Under the pieces are notes generated by a model. That model worked only from the letters and a program-made list of their open reading frames with translations. It had not been told where the DNA came from and made no database searches. A stretch of DNA of 64,000 nucleotides from a virus: IMG/VR virus record IMGVR_UViG_3300015360_000025; one strand, written 5' to 3'. The position numbers and the translations under genes are program-made. Shown one piece after another: positions 59,234 to 63,892 of this stretch (its first letter is position 1; every line of letters begins with the position of its first letter).

Positions 59234-62200
59234 ATGGCCAAGCAGAAATTCCGCCCGCCCAATGAAACCCAAGGACGCGGGTTCCGTGGTGGTCAGGGAT
59301 TCCCCGTACCGATGGATATGAAGATCGGCTTCGGGGACGAGAAGTATGGTGAATTCGATGCCAGCATCGACGAGGATTCGTTCCTTGAAGACATCGTTGT
59401 AAACGTGTCTGCCAGGGTTACCGGTGGACAGCTCAAGAAGAAGGCGAGGTCTAAGGACGTCGTCTCCAAGAAAGGTTCTCCTCTCGACATCGTGGTCAAG
59501 AATGTCCTGGGTGGCCTACTGGGGGAAGCCGATGAGCAGGGCCCAAAAGGGCCACCGAATGGCATCGCCCACATCGAAGATCTAAAGCCTGAAGAGTTCC
59601 TGAGGTTCCTTGAGAAGTACAGAGACCTGCCACTGGATGGCGGACTCGAGGTATCTGAGAAGGTTGATGGCTCGGCGCATATGTCTTTCGGCGTCAAGGG
59701 TGGCCAACTCTGGACCAAGAGTAAGAATGGTACCGTCAAGATGTCTGCAGACGAGTATCCAGATCAACCGATGTTCCGCGCCTTGAAGCAGGCCCACTGG
59801 GCGCTACAAGAACTGACAACAAAGCTCCCGGAAGGTGTGACGTTTGCCTCCGATGTACTTTACACTCGCATTCCGAATTCGATCGAGTACGGCGACAACA
59901 GGATCGTGGTGCACGGAGTTTCTGGAGGAAATGGTGTCGAGGCCAAACAGGTCATTGATCAGCTGTCTACACAGAGTCTTTCTGACGGTGACCAGAATTG
60001 GAAGATCGAGTTCAAACGTGTCTTATCTCCAGATGAAGTTATGGTTGACGTAAAGGAGGAGTTCAACTCCATCTCCGAAATCTACGACGAGCTGAAGCGA
60101 CTCACACCCAACAAGTTGAAGGCGGTTGGCAAAGGACCGTACAAAGCCGCTCTCGCCAAGTTTCAAGCAATCCAGATGGCGCTAAAGAAGAAGCTTGTAG
60201 GACAACTCCGTGGCAAGAGTTCGGCCTACGGTCCAGAGGGTGGTGACGTCGAGGGACTGGTTTTCCGTGACCTGGAATCGGGTGCGATGACGAAGTTGGT
60301 CGACAAAGAATATTTCACCAAGTTGAATAAGTTCCTCTGGCGGTACCGTGAGATGCTCTATAATGGAGTTAAGATCGGCGACCAGTGGCAATTCGGGATA
60401 CTCCAACGCTTCCGGAATGCGATCGCCGACAATGTCCTCGGATCGGCCGTCGCCAAGACACCTGGTTTCGTGGGACAGTTGAAGAAGTTCGGGTATGATC
60501 TCGAGTACCCTCCTGGGGCTAACACTTCTGACAAGAGAGCAGATTTCCTTCTCTCACAGTACATTCAGAAGAATGGTCTCATGTCGGGTGACTACCTGTC
60601 TGGATTTGTGAAAGAGCTGTACACCGTCGCCGACGACTTCAAAGATCTCAGGAAGGAATGGGATACCAAGAAGAATGGTAACCTGACTCACCATGTGAAG
60701 GATGATCTCGGACATGTCATCAAGTCCATCACGATGGATCAGATCATCAAGGACAGAACAGAAGAGGCGTTCAAGGGTATGGAAGAATTCCTGCTCGGAA
60801 CTGGGAAGGCAATCGGTGAGATCGGCAAGATGAAGGGAGATTTAACAAAGAAGACCGCGCTGCTCAAGCTCATGATGGGACAGGGAAGATTGGAAAAGTT
60901 AGCGACAGAGGCTAGCCCAGGACTCCGCGAATCTGAGTCGCGTGTCGGATCCATCGAACCGTTGGTCCAGAAGAATATGCCGTTGCTGGCGAAGCATGGG
61001 TTTGACATAACCCGTCCGTCCGCCGATTGGCTTCCGAACGCCATCGGATCAGGAGCTTCAGGCACTGCATACAGCATGAAGGACGGTCGCGTTCTGAAGA
61101 TCACTACTGACGATACTGAAGCTCGGGCTAGCAACCACCTCAAAGGAAAGAAGCTCAAGTACGCTGCGCGAATCGACAACGTCTTCAGGTTCAAAGAAGA
61201 GCACGGTATTCCGGGTCGTCCTGTGAAGATGAAGTACTACGGGATCGTCCAGGAGAAAGTTAAACCTCTTTCGTCACCTGTCAAGCAAGAGCTAACAACC
61301 ATCCTTCGACTCGCAGAAGATCTATTCGGATTCGGTTGGATCACTAATGGTCGTGAGAAGAACGAGGCGCACGCAAAAGAATCTATTGCTGGTAATCCTG
61401 ATCTGACGGCAGATATCACGCGCCTTCTGAAGGGTATGAAGCAGCTCAAGCTCTGGGACATGCTGGAAGAGCTTCAGACCAATGGGGTCGAATGGCAGGA
61501 CCTCCATCCCGGTAACGTCATGATGCGCGGGAAGGACCTGGTCGCCATCGATCTTGGTGTCTCCCGCTCCCCTGGAGCAGAGCCAGATATCCTTGAATCA
61601 ATCCAGTACCTAGGAGAAGCCAACACTGGCGACGTAAAGTCAATTCTCAATAAGTTTGAACCTCTCCTTGCGAAGAACGGTATTAATGCCGGTGCGGAAC
61701 TGGGGTCCGGAAGTCAAGCGATCGTCTTCGACGCCGGTGGAGGGAAGGTCCTGAAGATTACTGAGGATCAGTCGGATGCTCAGGCCGCCCTCAAGGCGAA
61801 GGAATCTAATCTAAAGTACGTCGCCAAGGTCTTCAATGTCTTCAAGTTCCCCGGGGAAGACTACTACGGAATCGTCCTCGAGAGACTGGCCCACATTCCT
61901 GGTTCTGAGAGCGCTCCTGAGAGCACGAGCGGGGAGGCGGCGATCTTGGAGGAAGCCATTGACGAGTCTTTCCTCTTCGCTGCTTCGCGGGGAAAGTTCA
62001 TCCGTTCATGGCAGGAAGCTTTCAAAGCGATGAACGCCATTCTCAAGACCAGAATGTCTCTTGTCGGGACGCTCGCCGGTCAGGACATGCAGGAGAACTT
62101 CGCCGCTTCGATCGCCACACTCAAGAAGTACAACATCGATAAGATCATCGACGACATCGGTGCAGTCGGGATTGAGTTCGGTGACTGGCACACGGGCAAC

Positions 62201-63892
62201 ATCATGAAGCGGGGATCTGATTACGTTCTCGTCGATCTGGGTTACTCGAAGGTCCACGGTGGACGTGAGCCGGATGTGCTCGAAAAGAAGGTGGTCGAGG
62301 GGGTGCTGAAGACTCTCCGAGAGGCACGGGCTGACCAGGTAGGGGTTACCATCGGTCGCTTCCAACCGTTCCACAAGGGTCACGCAGAGATCATCCGTGG
62401 ACTCGCCAAGAAATTCGACAAGGTCATCGTCATCGTGGCCGGGAATACCAAGGACAAGAAGAATCCGTTCTCCCTCGAGACGAGGATGCAGTTGATGCAG
62501 AAGTCTCTACCGGACGTCATGTCCAATGTGGAGATCCACAAGGCTGAGTACGGAGGGAAGGGAAGCGGGTACATTCCGGGAGTCCTCTCAGACATCGTGA
62601 AGAACAAGAGGTCTTCGGTCGAGGCAGATACTGCCATCCACATTCTGGTCGGTCCGGATCGGTTCGCCGAGATCAAAAAGCAGTTGGACCACGCCAAATT
62701 GGCCAAGGAGCAGGGGACCGAATTGCTATTTGATCCCAACATGGCTGAGCTCAACCAACTCCCTGGGGTCAAGAATGACGACGATACGGATCGGATCTCC
62801 GGCACCAAGGTGCGTGAAGCTCTCGTTGCCGACCAGAAAGACGTCGTCCAGAGCATGATGGATCCACATCTGGTCTCGAATCCTGCCGACTTTGAGAATC
62901 TCTACGTTAAGATGCGTTCGGAACTGACGGCAGGGTTGGCGGGAAAGCGAGCACGACCGACCGATCCAAATCCCGCAGGTCTTGAAGAAGATCTGAAAGA
63001 CATCGGAAGCGAAGCAGGCGTTCAGGTCGTCCTTCAGGCGAATGCCGAGAAGCTCTTGGCTTCACCGTGGAAGATCGACGTCAACAAGCTTACCCAACTC
63101 GGATCTGGACAGGAGGGGATCGCCTACGACATCGGAGGCGGGAAGGTCATGAAGGTCTCGGCTGACGAGAAGGAAGCCGAGACCAGCTATGGCATCAAGG
63201 GCAAGACGAACCTGAAGCACGTCGTCCATGTCTTTGATGTCTTCCGCTTCATGGACACCCCTGGCATCGTGCAGCCGGTCTACTGTCTCATCACCGAGAA
63301 GCTCATCAAACTGACTGCACCCGAACAGAAGGAATTCGACGACGTCACCGACGAGTGTCAGGCGCAGATGGGCAAGAAGCGGTACATCGACGCCGTCTGG
63401 ACCGGAGACTGGAACCACTTCGTCCAAGAAATGCGATCTGCCTTCCAGGAAGACATCGCCAAAGAGTCGCACCTGCCGCCCGACCATCCACGTCTTGTCA
63501 GGGTCCTCGAATCTCGCATGCAGAGATACCTGCCGATCATGCAGAAGTTCAAGATGTCCGACATGATGTCCGAGCTAAAGGGATTGGGGATCAAGTTCGC
63601 CGACTACCACGGTGGAAACCTGATGAAGAGGGGAGGTGACTATGTCATCAACGATCTTGGCCGTTCGGAATCTACCAGCAATAAAGTACCACCGATGATG
63701 GAAGACATAGTCTCCAAGATCATCGAGGACTTCGGATTCGGTTCGTCTGCCGTCGGAATGAAGGCTGGTAGCTCCGCGTGGTCGACTTCCAAGAACCAAG
63801 TCGATCCTAATTCCAAGGAACTCTGGCAGAACCAACTCAATCGTATGGAACCGTTCCACTCAGGATCGGCGGACATTAAGAGACAGAAGTGA
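59234..63892 (+). CDS. Multidomain enzyme: ATP-dependent ligase-like, kinase-like x2, HIGH-family nucleotidyltransferase, kinase-like
   Basis: EKVDGS/EGLVF/TKLVDK ligase motifs; three GSG..G...VxKxT/S-D...DxHxGN...DLG kinase repeats; GRFQPFHKGH...ISGTKVRE. Confidence 0.85.
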   Translation: MAKQKFRPPNETQGRGFRGGQGFPVPMDMKIGFGDEKYGEFDASIDEDSFLEDIVVNVSARVTGGQLKKKARSKDVVSKKGSPLDIVVKNVLGGLLGEADEQGPKGPPNGIAHIEDLKPEEFLRFLEKYRDLPLDGGLEVSEKVDGSAHMSFGVKGGQLWTKSKNGTVKMSADEYPDQPMFRALKQAHWALQELTTKLPEGVTFASDVLYTRIPNSIEYGDNRIVVHGVSGGNGVEAKQVIDQLSTQSLSDGDQNWKIEFKRVLSPDEVMVDVKEEFNSISEIYDELKRLTPNKLKAVGKGPYKAALAKFQAIQMALKKKLVGQLRGKSSAYGPEGGDVEGLVFRDLESGAMTKLVDKEYFTKLNKFLWRYREMLYNGVKIGDQWQFGILQRFRNAIADNVLGSAVAKTPGFVGQLKKFGYDLEYPPGANTSDKRADFLLSQYIQKNGLMSGDYLSGFVKELYTVADDFKDLRKEWDTKKNGNLTHHVKDDLGHVIKSITMDQIIKDRTEEAFKGMEEFLLGTGKAIGEIGKMKGDLTKKTALLKLMMGQGRLEKLATEASPGLRESESRVGSIEPLVQKNMPLLAKHGFDITRPSADWLPNAIGSGASGTAYSMKDGRVLKITTDDTEARASNHLKGKKLKYAARIDNVFRFKEEHGIPGRPVKMKYYGIVQEKVKPLSSPVKQELTTILRLAEDLFGFGWITNGREKNEAHAKESIAGNPDLTADITRLLKGMKQLKLWDMLEELQTNGVEWQDLHPGNVMMRGKDLVAIDLGVSRSPGAEPDILESIQYLGEANTGDVKSILNKFEPLLAKNGINAGAELGSGSQAIVFDAGGGKVLKITEDQSDAQAALKAKESNLKYVAKVFNVFKFPGEDYYGIVLERLAHIPGSESAPESTSGEAAILEEAIDESFLFAASRGKFIRSWQEAFKAMNAILKTRMSLVGTLAGQDMQENFAASIATLKKYNIDKIIDDIGAVGIEFGDWHTGNIMKRGSDYVLVDLGYSKVHGGREPDVLEKKVVEGVLKTLREARADQVGVTIGRFQPFHKGHAEIIRGLAKKFDKVIVIVAGNTKDKKNPFSLETRMQLMQKSLPDVMSNVEIHKAEYGGKGSGYIPGVLSDIVKNKRSSVEADTAIHILVGPDRFAEIKKQLDHAKLAKEQGTELLFDPNMAELNQLPGVKNDDDTDRISGTKVREALVADQKDVVQSMMDPHLVSNPADFENLYVKMRSELTAGLAGKRARPTDPNPAGLEEDLKDIGSEAGVQVVLQANAEKLLASPWKIDVNKLTQLGSGQEGIAYDIGGGKVMKVSADEKEAETSYGIKGKTNLKHVVHVFDVFRFMDTPGIVQPVYCLITEKLIKLTAPEQKEFDDVTDECQAQMGKKRYIDAVWTGDWNHFVQEMRSAFQEDIAKESHLPPDHPRLVRVLESRMQRYLPIMQKFKMSDMMSELKGLGIKFADYHGGNLMKRGGDYVINDLGRSESTSNKVPPMMEDIVSKIIEDFGFGSSAVGMKAGSSAWSTSKNQVDPNSKELWQNQLNRMEPFHSGSADIKRQK

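Follow-up and report, generated by a model that had tools for sequence, protein, structure and literature searches.

The 64,000-nt window analysed here (IMG/VR record IMGVR_UViG_3300015360_000025) comes from an uncultured T4-like phage whose genome spans about 187 kb and encodes a 1552-residue protein in which five catalytic modules with strongly conserved active-site residues are arranged like beads on a string: a lysine nucleotidyltransferase that resembles RNA ligases and is joined to a helical domain, three minimal protein-kinase cores, and an NMNAT-like HIGH nucleotidyltransferase (NTase). The architecture, which the initial annotation did not recognize from characterized proteins, is indeed uncharacterized, but the general concept has already been described for polyvalent proteins, which are encoded by phages and conjugative elements (Iyer, Burroughs, Anand, de Souza, and Aravind 2017; PMC5512222). 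The reading that we favour, with as much doubt as conviction, is that of an Alt-like, capsid-packaged polyvalent effector polyprotein that would be processed and injected, blunting host defences. A candidate role as a packaged counter-defence module, as proposed in the initial annotation, is plausible and indirectly supported by the lytic transglycosylase (SLT) and pyrophosphatase (InPase) domains of its relatives, the protease-type motifs in its linkers, and the T4-type prohead protease of the phage.

That the open reading frame at 59234–63892 (stop codon included; plus strand, as are all features described below) is a genuine gene is confirmed by motifs and conservation far beyond chance. 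The frame is open throughout, a good AGAGG ribosome-binding site (59225–59229) is followed 5 nt further on by the ATG, and ~60 homologues with 30–80% identity retain the domains and catalytic residues of the protein. The ATG at 59234 is preferred over Met27, the start used by the database copy P0002, because the N-terminus encoded from there is conserved in the relatives P0003 and P0006. The gene sits where tail genes meet replication genes and comes after PolA-like, HD, and tubulin genes; a tRNA island is also present in the window. Its product is a member of a purely metagenomic family that is modular and confined to phages, and no cultured relative was found among the ~60 homologues. The family layout comprises the ligase with its middle domain, one to five kinases, the NTase, and a further kinase. 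All motifs named in the initial annotation are located where it had placed them, and the domains that it had proposed are backed by fold matches of two confident AlphaFold models (pLDDT 90.7 and 84.6); the packing between domains is not confident (pTM 0.37, although domain pLDDT exceeds 90).

The covalent nucleotidyltransferase domain at residues 112–400 (59567–60433) contains motif I in EKVDG (residues 142–146, nt 59657; Lys143 at nt 59660–59662), motif IV in EGLVF (E340-G341, nt 60251), and motif V in KLVDK (K354). The residues K143, D145, G146, E340, G341, and K354 are invariant among the relatives. The ligase fold was correctly assigned, and the module is RNA-ligase-like rather than DNA-ligase-like, since the closest folds are RNA ligases and fold comparison found no OB domain in the ligase region. 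Like T4 RNA ligase 1 (Rnl1) and the ligase domain of the fungal and plant tRNA ligase Trl1 (and, more broadly, the ATP-dependent RNA ligases Rnl2, Rnl3, and Rnl5), it combines the covalent nucleotidyltransferase fold with the KxDG lysine, the EG motif, and the motif V lysine; as in Rnl1 and Trl1, the C-terminal domain is helical and has no OB fold. This mostly helical middle domain (residues 401–557; 60434–60904) always follows the ligase core, which it accompanies in nearly all relatives, and the alignments of Trl1 and archaeal RNA ligases extend to its beginning (model residues ~390–428). Unlike Rnl1 and Trl1, the ligase shares its chain with kinases and an NTase, carries a helical hairpin of ~60 residues inserted in its nucleotidyltransferase domain (AlphaFold model), and has no match to any solved ligase in a sequence-profile search against the PDB. 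PF09511 was undetected in the 1552-residue protein, and its weak matches in the relatives tested all fell below the threshold (best 27.1 vs. 28.3 bits).

The three kinase repeats (residues 602–788, 821–1017, and 1286–1499; 61037–61597, 61694–62284, and 63089–63730) represent minimal protein-kinase cores of ~190 residues each that end shortly past the DLG motif. The Gly-loop, the VxK lysine, the catalytic Asp and Asn of DxHxGN (residues 756–761, 984–989, and 1457–1462), and DLG (residues 773, 1001, and 1474) are present in all three, as the initial annotation had noted. The residues concerned in the first repeat are G605/G607/G610, K622, E629, D756, N761, and D773; among 163 repeats from ~60 relatives, K622 and N761 are conserved in 99% and D756 and D773 in 100%. 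The closest folds are eukaryotic-type protein kinases (for repeat 2, model residues 207–421, VIA: PIM1 8.7, MK3 8.6, PINK1 8.6, ArkI 8.3, Rio1 8.0), which narrows the original description as protein-kinase- or APH-like repeats to protein-kinase-like cores. Matches to the small-molecule kinases of the APH and ABC1 Pfam families are weak, as are those to Bud32 (repeat 2) and the profile matches to NleH1/2 and YopO. The third repeat, whose position after the NTase is conserved, drew few fold-search rows, the protein-kinase neighbours coming from repeats 1 and 2. Its best named cluster in the ESM Atlas carries PF27024 (Phage_T7_kinase; score 0.95, rank 4, behind three unnamed clusters of hypothetical proteins), a family that is also precomputed for the relatives P0036 and P0062; hhalign of a kinase against T7 gp0.7 yielded a probability of only 22%, in the N-lobe.

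The promiscuous kinase of phage T7 disarms host defences (PMC13645617), and like T7 gp0.7 (T7K) and the minimal bacterial effector kinases NleH/OspG, the repeats are small members, of the phage or effector kind, of the protein-kinase superfamily. They differ from T7K homologues by a DLG in place of DPV, from T7 gp0.7 by the absence of a shut-off or DNA-binding domain, and from both T7 gp0.7 and NleH/OspG by their occurrence as one to five tandem copies within a larger protein. They also resemble a clade of polyvalent kinases that has no C-terminal lobe and has kept all catalytic residues (PMC5512222), sharing with it the missing C-lobe and a Gln that is conserved in the final strand of the N-lobe (here YGIVQEKL).

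The HIGH-motif NTase (residues 1036–1236; 62339–62941) contains GRFQPFHKGH (1041–1050; nt 62354) and ISGTKVR (1188–1194, followed by E). By sequence and by fold, it is matched best by NMNATs of the archaeal, NadM, and NadR types, and the motifs GRFQPFHxGH and ISGTxxR are shared with M. jannaschii MJ0541 (1f9a) and F. tularensis NadM (2qjt). The sequence match is limited to the first ~60 residues, and the NTase fails every NMNAT equivalog cut-off (e.g., 41.8 vs. 181 bits); it is NMNAT-like in its nucleotide-binding half only, which refines the earlier assignment to the NMNAT/cytidylyltransferase superfamily, and the substrate assignment is putative. Unlike in NadM-type NMNATs, a Nudix or Nampt partner is absent, and the NTase is accompanied by an RNA ligase and kinases. 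Phages reconstitute NAD+ by Nampt plus NMNAT; the annotated portion of the window revealed no Nampt. Because the NTase is NMNAT-like in one half only and fails all equivalog cut-offs, a resynthesis of NAD+ is possible but unproven.

The modules are preceded by a non-enzymatic leader (residues 1–98; 59234–59527) with a GFPVP motif, whose general form, G(Y/F)P(V/L/I)P, is shared by 29 of 61 relatives. The leader ends in LLGE↓A, a candidate site of propeptide cleavage after E98. The corresponding hhGE[AGST] was found in 13 of the 61 N-termini, compared with ~0.02 expected per 160 residues elsewhere, and terminates the leader regardless of which domain comes next. Similar motifs are found in linker 1 (60905–61036), where GLRE↓S (E566) lies inside a low-confidence segment (561–570; pLDDT <50, model-1 residues 461–470); in linker 2 (61598–61693), where ILE↓S (E788) and LGE↓A (E795) flank the disordered residues 789–796 (pLDDT <50, model-2 residues 200–207); and in the post-kinase helix with linker 3 (62285–62338), where TLRE↓A (E1030) falls within the low-confidence segment 1025–1031. 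The sole motif of linker 4 (62942–63088; disordered at 1237–1252) is LEE↓D, without an (A/G/S) site. The motif upstream of the NTase is present in 42 of 54 relatives, whereas the junction between NTase and kinase bears one in just 14 of 43; linkers other than that between kinase and NTase contain it in less than half of the cases. The C-terminal tail (residues 1500–1552; 63731–63889) is disordered (pLDDT <50) yet conserved, with an AGSSxWS...W motif, and is kept in most relatives.

Linkers contain 102 occurrences of (L/I/M)-x-E-(A/G/S) against 28.6 ± 5.3 expected from within-linker shuffles, in sequences that are homologous and hence not independent. The density is 1.16 per 100 residues in linkers and 0.17 in domain cores, and five of the six motifs of the 1552-residue protein are located in or abut linkers, four of them in or next to segments with pLDDT <50. 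The linker motifs match the sites of T4-type prohead proteases and represent putative cleavage sites. The candidate processing enzyme is a head maturation protease (26214–26876; phrog_207, E = 1.6e-56) encoded between the portal (21654) and the T4 gp23-like major capsid protein (30432–32108; phmmer against mature T4 gp23*, E = 4e-31). The capsid protein has a candidate site (LLRE61↓S) roughly at the position of the cleavage in T4 gp23, residue 31 of mature gp23* aligning to its residue 76, and is one of five head-module ORFs with a candidate site near the N-terminus (25934, 27108, 29189, 32264, and 30432); the density of such sites over the proteome is 0.30 per 100 residues.

As in polyvalent proteins (PMC5512222), several unrelated enzymatic domains reside on one phage polypeptide, and relatives possess InPase (E = 5e-35) and 2H phosphoesterase domains together with peptidoglycan-cutting domains. 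By contrast, that survey lists neither an RNA ligase nor an NMNAT-like HIGH NTase and states that no polyvalent-type 2H domain was observed together with an RNA ligase, whereas fusions of 2H and ligase exist among the present relatives; MuF, zincin peptidase, and ArdC, the hub domains of polyvalent proteins, are absent from the 1552-residue protein, and the proposed processing would involve a T4-type prohead protease instead of a zincin peptidase. An SLT domain is embedded in the collinear relative P0026 (1241–1338; E = 5e-27) and in P0059, and is precomputed by Pfam in nine relatives. It suggests that the chain crosses the envelope, because a peptidoglycan-cutting domain would otherwise make no sense.

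The polyprotein would be loaded into the prohead in the same way as the T4 internal proteins and T4 Alt, the prototype of an injected enzyme. A gp21-type prohead protease would remove the leader of ~98 residues and cut (L/I/M)-x-E↓(A/S/G) in the flexible linkers, i.e., after E98, E566, E788/E795, and E1030. The fragments would be ejected together with the DNA, so that the enzymes would be ready-made and active ahead of any phage gene expression. The ligase may reseal tRNA or other RNA cleaved by host anticodon nucleases, the kinases may phosphorylate host proteins, including defence proteins, in the manner of T7 gp0.7, and the NTase may convert a mononucleotide and ATP to NAD+ or a related dinucleotide.

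A less probable but serious alternative is a cytoplasmic, unprocessed multi-enzyme protein made after infection that heals and seals RNA: the ligase would do the sealing, the kinase-fold domains would act on RNA ends or tRNA like the archaeal tRNA kinase ArkI, and the NTase would serve the same pathway. The direct fusion of a 2H cyclic phosphodiesterase in front of the ligase in P0038, P0043, and P0059 recalls the ligase-kinase-CPD logic of Trl1, a kinase-less fusion of NTase, ligase, and middle domain (L015; 703 residues) shows that NTase and ligase are coupled, and both the adjoining replication genes and the tRNA island would fit. However, the embedded SLT of collinear relatives is difficult to reconcile with a cytoplasmic enzyme, one to five kinase copies are unexpected for a single end-healing step, the kinases lie closest to protein kinases and to a T7-kinase-like cluster, and the enrichment of linker motifs is not accounted for. 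In another scenario, which is unlikely, packaging and ejection would involve a single chain that is not cut between its domains, as with the virion RNA polymerase of N4 or gp16 of T7, and the linker motifs would be of purely structural significance. This scenario shares the packaging evidence (SLT, InPase) with the favoured effector, and the linker motif could simply be part of a helix that is conserved behind the kinases: 88% of the kinase repeats are followed by PxxLE, which the model shows with fair confidence as the start of an ordered helix, so that this element may belong to the kinase fold. Yet sites of the LGE↓A and LRE↓A type fall in low-confidence segments rather than in ordered helix, Ala occupies P1' in 26% of the linker motifs but in 7% of those in cores, and the leader ends in the same motif whatever domain follows. 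Quite improbable is an NAD+ salvage enzyme directed against NAD-depleting defences, in which the NTase would be a genuine NMNAT and the kinase following it, if no other, would produce NMN from nicotinamide riboside, as in the NMNAT-plus-kinase NadR: the NMNAT motifs and best matches, the conserved order of NTase and third kinase across the junction poorest in cleavage-type motifs, and the weak APH and ABC1 matches speak for it, but the NMNAT similarity is confined to the first ~60 residues with scores far under the cut-offs, the third kinase is paralogous to the first two, with the same features, and their fold neighbours are protein kinases, nicotinamide from NADase defences would require a Nampt, which the annotated portion of the window did not reveal, and the ligase and the variable number of kinases are left unexplained.

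Points that weigh against the favoured effector are the position of the gene next to replication genes, the low share of motif-bearing linkers outside the kinase–NTase junction, the possible structural role of the motif, the missing hub domains, the ligase without a profile match in the PDB, and the NTase scores under the NMNAT cut-offs. In addition, a targeting sequence common to the polyprotein and other proteins of the window was not found, and the T4 late promoter TATAAATA was looked for and is absent. A promoter-like motif, CCTCTATATC (56317–56326), with an overall count weakly above chance (11 vs. 6.4), is located 24 nt upstream of the gene string that ends with the polyprotein gene (56341–63892) and is also found upstream of head and sheath genes.

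The open frame at 59234–63892 (+ strand) runs uninterrupted over 1552 codons from an ATG with a ribosome-binding site (AGAGG) 5 bases upstream. The database copy of the protein (P0002) begins at Met27, and we favour the ATG at 59234 because the N-terminus encoded from there is kept in relatives. The initial annotation had described the product as a polyprotein of a ligase, three kinases, and a nucleotidyltransferase; both the frame and every motif that it named were recovered where they had been placed, and the domain identities are solid. Family members share a layout that consists of a leader, an optional 2H phosphoesterase, pyrophosphatase (InPase), or other domain, the ligase with its middle domain, one to five kinases, the HIGH-motif nucleotidyltransferase (NTase), one further kinase, and a conserved tail. 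The 2H domain immediately precedes the ligase in several relatives, a fusion that the polyvalent-protein survey of 2017 reported as never seen (PMC5512222). The polyvalent-protein theme (PMC5512222) is extended here by modules of RNA-ligase and NMNAT-like type and by the fusion of 2H to ligase. A G(K)PG(Y/F)PVP motif at the N-terminus (59234–59320; present in 29 of 61 relatives) and a disordered C-terminal tail with the pattern AGSSxWS...W (63731–63889) are both conserved and non-globular. None of 185,579 genomes of prokaryote species contains the family, and searches of 50,697 phage records (whole-protein tblastn and 24-kb megablast) found no cultured relatives, yielding only two matches to stand-alone NTases.

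The reading to which we give about even weight is that the polyprotein is an Alt-like polyvalent effector, which would be loaded into the capsid as is T4 Alt, cleaved by the prohead protease to release an RNA ligase, the kinases, and an NTase (or NTase-kinase), and injected into the host in pieces together with the phage DNA. The window represents a T4-like phage's structural module, with a large terminase (at 19973), a portal (21654), a gp21-type head maturation protease (26214–26876; phrog_207, E 1.6e-56), a gp23-like major capsid protein (30432; E 4e-31 to mature T4 gp23), a tail sheath (36460), and a tape measure (46924). The structural genes are followed by a block whose gene order is shared by nine relatives; it begins with proteins of 711, 104, and 586 aa and a PolA-like protein of 459 aa, after which come an HD protein, one of 169 aa, one of PGDYG type, a tubulin/TubZ-like protein of variable presence, and one of 123 aa. 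The polyprotein gene comes right after this block and, in a relative contig, precedes genes for replication (UvsX/RecA, 5'-3' exonuclease, DnaB, and RNR). Nine relatives carry a lytic transglycosylase (SLT) domain, located inside the chain in both proteins checked for its position (e.g., residues 1241–1338 of P0026, E 5e-27), and about ten carry a polyvalent-type InPase (E down to 5e-35). Together with the adjacency to the tail module, these domains would be indirect indications that the polyprotein is present in the virion and delivered from it.

The domain at residues 112–557 has a nucleotidyltransferase fold of the RNA-ligase type and a helical C-domain without an OB domain. Residues K143, D145, and G146 of motif I (EKVDG, 142–146) are invariant in alignments of 49 and of 11 sequences, as are E340 and G341 of motif IV and K354 of motif V; the second basic position (358) is lysine or arginine. 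An AlphaFold model of residues 101–600, based on the 49-sequence alignment, reached a pLDDT of 90.7, and its top Foldseek matches are all RNA ligases (archaeal Rnl3, T4 Rnl2, T4 Rnl1, and fungal Trl1; probability 1.0 each). Motifs and fold place the domain in the superfamily of ATP-dependent RNA ligases and covalent nucleotidyltransferases, in agreement with the ligase-type core proposed earlier. A search of the PDB with the sequence profile found no solved ligase, and Pfam PF09511 (RNA_lig_T4_1) has no match in the polyprotein at E ≤ 1; in six relatives, it matches the same domain weakly, with 27.1 bits in the best case (P0043) and 14–22 bits in the others, always below the gathering threshold of 28.3 bits. 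Because PF09511 stays below this threshold in the polyprotein and its relatives, the domain is classified as RNA-ligase-like and placed outside the Rnl1 family. An identity as DNA ligase or capping enzyme was rejected, as the OB domain is missing and RNA ligases top both fold searches, with a small Z margin. The protein could instead be a cytoplasmic multi-enzyme that repairs RNA, a rival possibility that we hold at low confidence and that has to be weighed against the SLT domains of the relatives and the distribution of cleavage motifs described below. The ligase-domain HMM also weakly matches (E 1.3e-5, over the region of motifs IV–V) a 411-aa phage protein of contig L017 (3609–4844), which is assigned to Pfam DUF6267 (E 1e-111) and whose gene adjoins another with an NT-like domain at its start; the DUF6267 family may itself be ligase-like.

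The three kinase repeats, K1 (residues 602–788), K2 (821–1017), and K3 (1286–1499), share 29–32% identity with each other. The initial annotation had considered all of them intact, and each indeed has the Gly-loop, the VxK lysine, the alpha-C glutamate, the D-x-H-x-G-N loop, and the DLG motif, which, together with the kinase fold, places them in the protein kinase-like superfamily. Among 163 repeats from about 60 relatives (one to five per protein), these active-site features are 94–100% conserved (lysine 99%, catalytic aspartate 100%, asparagine 99%, and DLG aspartate 100%), and no pseudokinase is apparent. Each repeat stops about 12–15 residues past the DLG motif and lacks the usual C-lobe; the PxxLE element that follows each kinase is ordered in the models and may be part of the kinase fold. 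The loss of the C-lobe with an intact active site is shared with the kinase clade of polyvalent proteins, judged by the description of that clade, as is a glutamine in the final N-lobe strand (consensus YGIVQEKL) (PMC5512222). The gathering thresholds of Pfam Pkinase, APH, and ABC1 are not reached (APH 15.6 and ABC1 14.3 bits for the polyprotein), and among 32 repeats tested against Pfam, nine matched APH and five ABC1, all weakly. A profile search of the PDB gave weak matches to YopO (the best, 0.0025), PknG, and NleH. A small-molecule kinase of the APH or choline-kinase type is less likely because all fold neighbors listed are protein kinases or of the RIO/ArkI type. In the ESM Atlas, the best named cluster (score 0.95, rank 4, behind three unnamed clusters of viral hypothetical proteins) has the annotation PF27024 (T7 kinase family), which is also among the precomputed annotations of two relatives (P0036 and P0062). 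Direct alignment to T7 gp0.7 with hhalign is weak (22% probability), and the repeats carry DLG, whereas the T7 kinase family has DPV in place of DFG (PMC13645617). The kinase family comprises 3160 representatives at E ≤ 1e-3, many of them stand-alone proteins of 220–260 residues and some with up to six to eight matched stretches; in the 185,579 genomes of prokaryote species, the only matches were weak ones to the catalytic loop of cellular kinases, and prophage copies were not found.

Evidence bearing on cleavage comes from the distribution of motifs of the prohead-protease type. As in substrates of T4-type prohead proteases, a gp21-type protease is encoded by the same phage, and (L/I)-x-E motifs are found at the leader and the domain junctions. 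Five of the six [LIM]xE[AGS] motifs of the polyprotein fall within linkers or beside them (E98|A, E566|S, E788|S, E795|A, and E1030|A), and four of these five lie inside or border the 41 residues between domains whose pLDDT is below 50. Across the family, motif density per 100 residues is 1.16 in linkers vs. 0.17 in domain cores; the linkers contain 102 motifs, compared with 28.6 ± 5.3 after shuffling of each linker, in a set of homologs that are not independent and with the caveat that the PxxLE element behind each kinase may belong to the fold. Alanine occupies the P1' position in 26% of the linker motifs but only in 7% of the core motifs, and the junction that leads from a kinase into the NTase has a motif in 37 of 48 cases, compared with about 33–48% at other junction types. 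When the capsid protein is aligned to mature T4 gp23, its LLRE61|S lies approximately at the gp23 cut position, and five ORFs of the head module, including the capsid protein, carry [LIM]xE[AGS] near the N-terminus, against a proteome-wide density of 0.30 per 100 residues. Packaging of the polyprotein without cleavage, which would leave the enzymes as one chain inside the capsid, is unlikely in our estimate; the SLT and InPase domains of the relatives are compatible with it, and the enrichment of motifs in linkers would suggest cutting. Some relatives begin with an LDxLIAE-like helix that, judged by eye, recalls the T4 capsid-targeting sequence; short-query BLAST with the leader, the tail, and the linkers found no targeting peptide shared with other proteins of the window. 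Among their first ~35 residues, the head-module ORFs at 25934, 27108, 29189 (403 aa), and 32264, and the 169-aa ORF (56341–56850) in the gene string of the polyprotein, also have an (L/I/M)-x-E-(A/G/S) site; all five are candidates for internal proteins trimmed by the protease. For polyvalent proteins, zincin peptidases have been proposed to carry out the processing, and a 139-aa protein with a Pfam match to ATLF (anthrax-lethal-factor-type zincin) is encoded two genes downstream of the polyprotein in a relative contig (L001, 15076–15495); the corresponding position lies past the end of the window.

The NTase (residues 1036–1236) has the HIGH motif H1047-x-G-H1050 and an ISGTKVR motif at 1188. 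Its earlier assignment to the NMNAT/cytidylyltransferase superfamily stands at the level of the HIGH superfamily, where PF01467 (CTP_transf_like; 52.4 bits, cut-off 21) and TIGR00125 (49.2, cut-off 27.7) were passed; at the level of NMNAT proper, all equivalog cut-offs were missed by far (TIGR01527, 41.8 bits vs. 181.2; NF002243, 44.3 vs. 127; NadM models, 29–39 vs. 354–449). The family profile matches the NMNAT of M. jannaschii (7e-12) and NadM (2e-10) better than the best PPAT (2e-6), and NadM and the M. jannaschii NMNAT are also the closest fold matches; similarity to NMNATs at the sequence level is confined to the first ~60 residues (1036–1096). The domain is NMNAT-like, probably an adenylyltransferase. 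In a 703-aa protein of L015 (10016–12127) that has no kinase, the NMNAT-like domain is fused without intervening domains to those of the ligase and middle part. A speculative reading, to which we assign little probability, is that the NMNAT-like and RNA-ligase-like domains, which also occur as this bare fusion, are functionally coupled on one RNA substrate and, with kinases acting on tRNA or RNA, form an injected, protease-cut kit for the protection of tRNA. In such a kit, the NTase, with its diverged substrate-binding half, might transfer a nucleotide to an RNA end or produce a dinucleotide for sealing, and the repeats with protein-kinase fold might act as kinases of tRNA or RNA by analogy with archaeal ArkI. 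An NAD-salvage enzyme would agree with the fold neighbors of the NTase, but with the NMNAT equivalog scores so far from their cut-offs, we consider it the most improbable of the alternatives.

If the polyprotein is indeed a capsid-loaded effector, the capsids of this phage group would be pre-loaded with an enzyme that seals RNA, several promiscuous kinases, and one that makes a dinucleotide, all of which would be at work during the first seconds of an infection, ahead of any transcription, and could counter abortive-infection defenses that cut tRNA, deplete NAD+, or rely on unmodified sensor proteins. The paradigm of T4 Alt and the internal proteins would then take in a polyprotein that owes its maturation to the prohead protease, and the catalog of polyvalent proteins would widen to include RNA ligases as well as NMNAT-like enzymes. 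The coupled tRNA-protection kit, if real, would involve a new RNA-end chemistry and be split into separate enzymes by the capsid protease. The tandem arrays of intact, minimal kinases (one to five per protein, more than 3000 family representatives) would constitute a large reservoir of phage kinases. The T7 kinase, which disarms many defenses, provides a concrete precedent for kinases as anti-defense weapons, and this finding makes such a reservoir more relevant (PMC13645617).

Several features of the surrounding genes deserve mention. The 459-aa PolA-like protein (54310–55689), whose gene directly follows tail/baseplate-like genes and has a syntenic counterpart in nine relatives, matches family A DNA polymerases only in the palm and fingers (residues 236–439) and could be a split or truncated PolA; in L015, a 52-kb viral contig, a full-length PolA is encoded two genes upstream of the NT-ligase-middle fusion. 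The TubZ-like gene of the tubulin/FtsZ family (57645–58835; Pfam Tubulin 1.5e-10, TubZ-like_C 1.4e-4), located two genes upstream of the polyprotein in this T4-like phage, has homologs in the relative contigs L003 (91% identity), L012 (63%), and L009 (weak match); L001 and L002 lack it at this position. Two tRNA genes were detected with ARAGORN at ~45 kb of the window. The T4 late promoter TATAAATA is absent. The motif CCTCTATWTA occurs 24–51 nt 5' of gene starts on the + strand, with exact copies at 19540, 28420, and 45869 and copies with one mismatch each at 32222, 36409, and 56317; its total number is not significant (11 observed vs. 6.4). The sheath gene is among those that it precedes, as is the string of genes with the polyprotein as its last member, and the motif is a candidate phage promoter.
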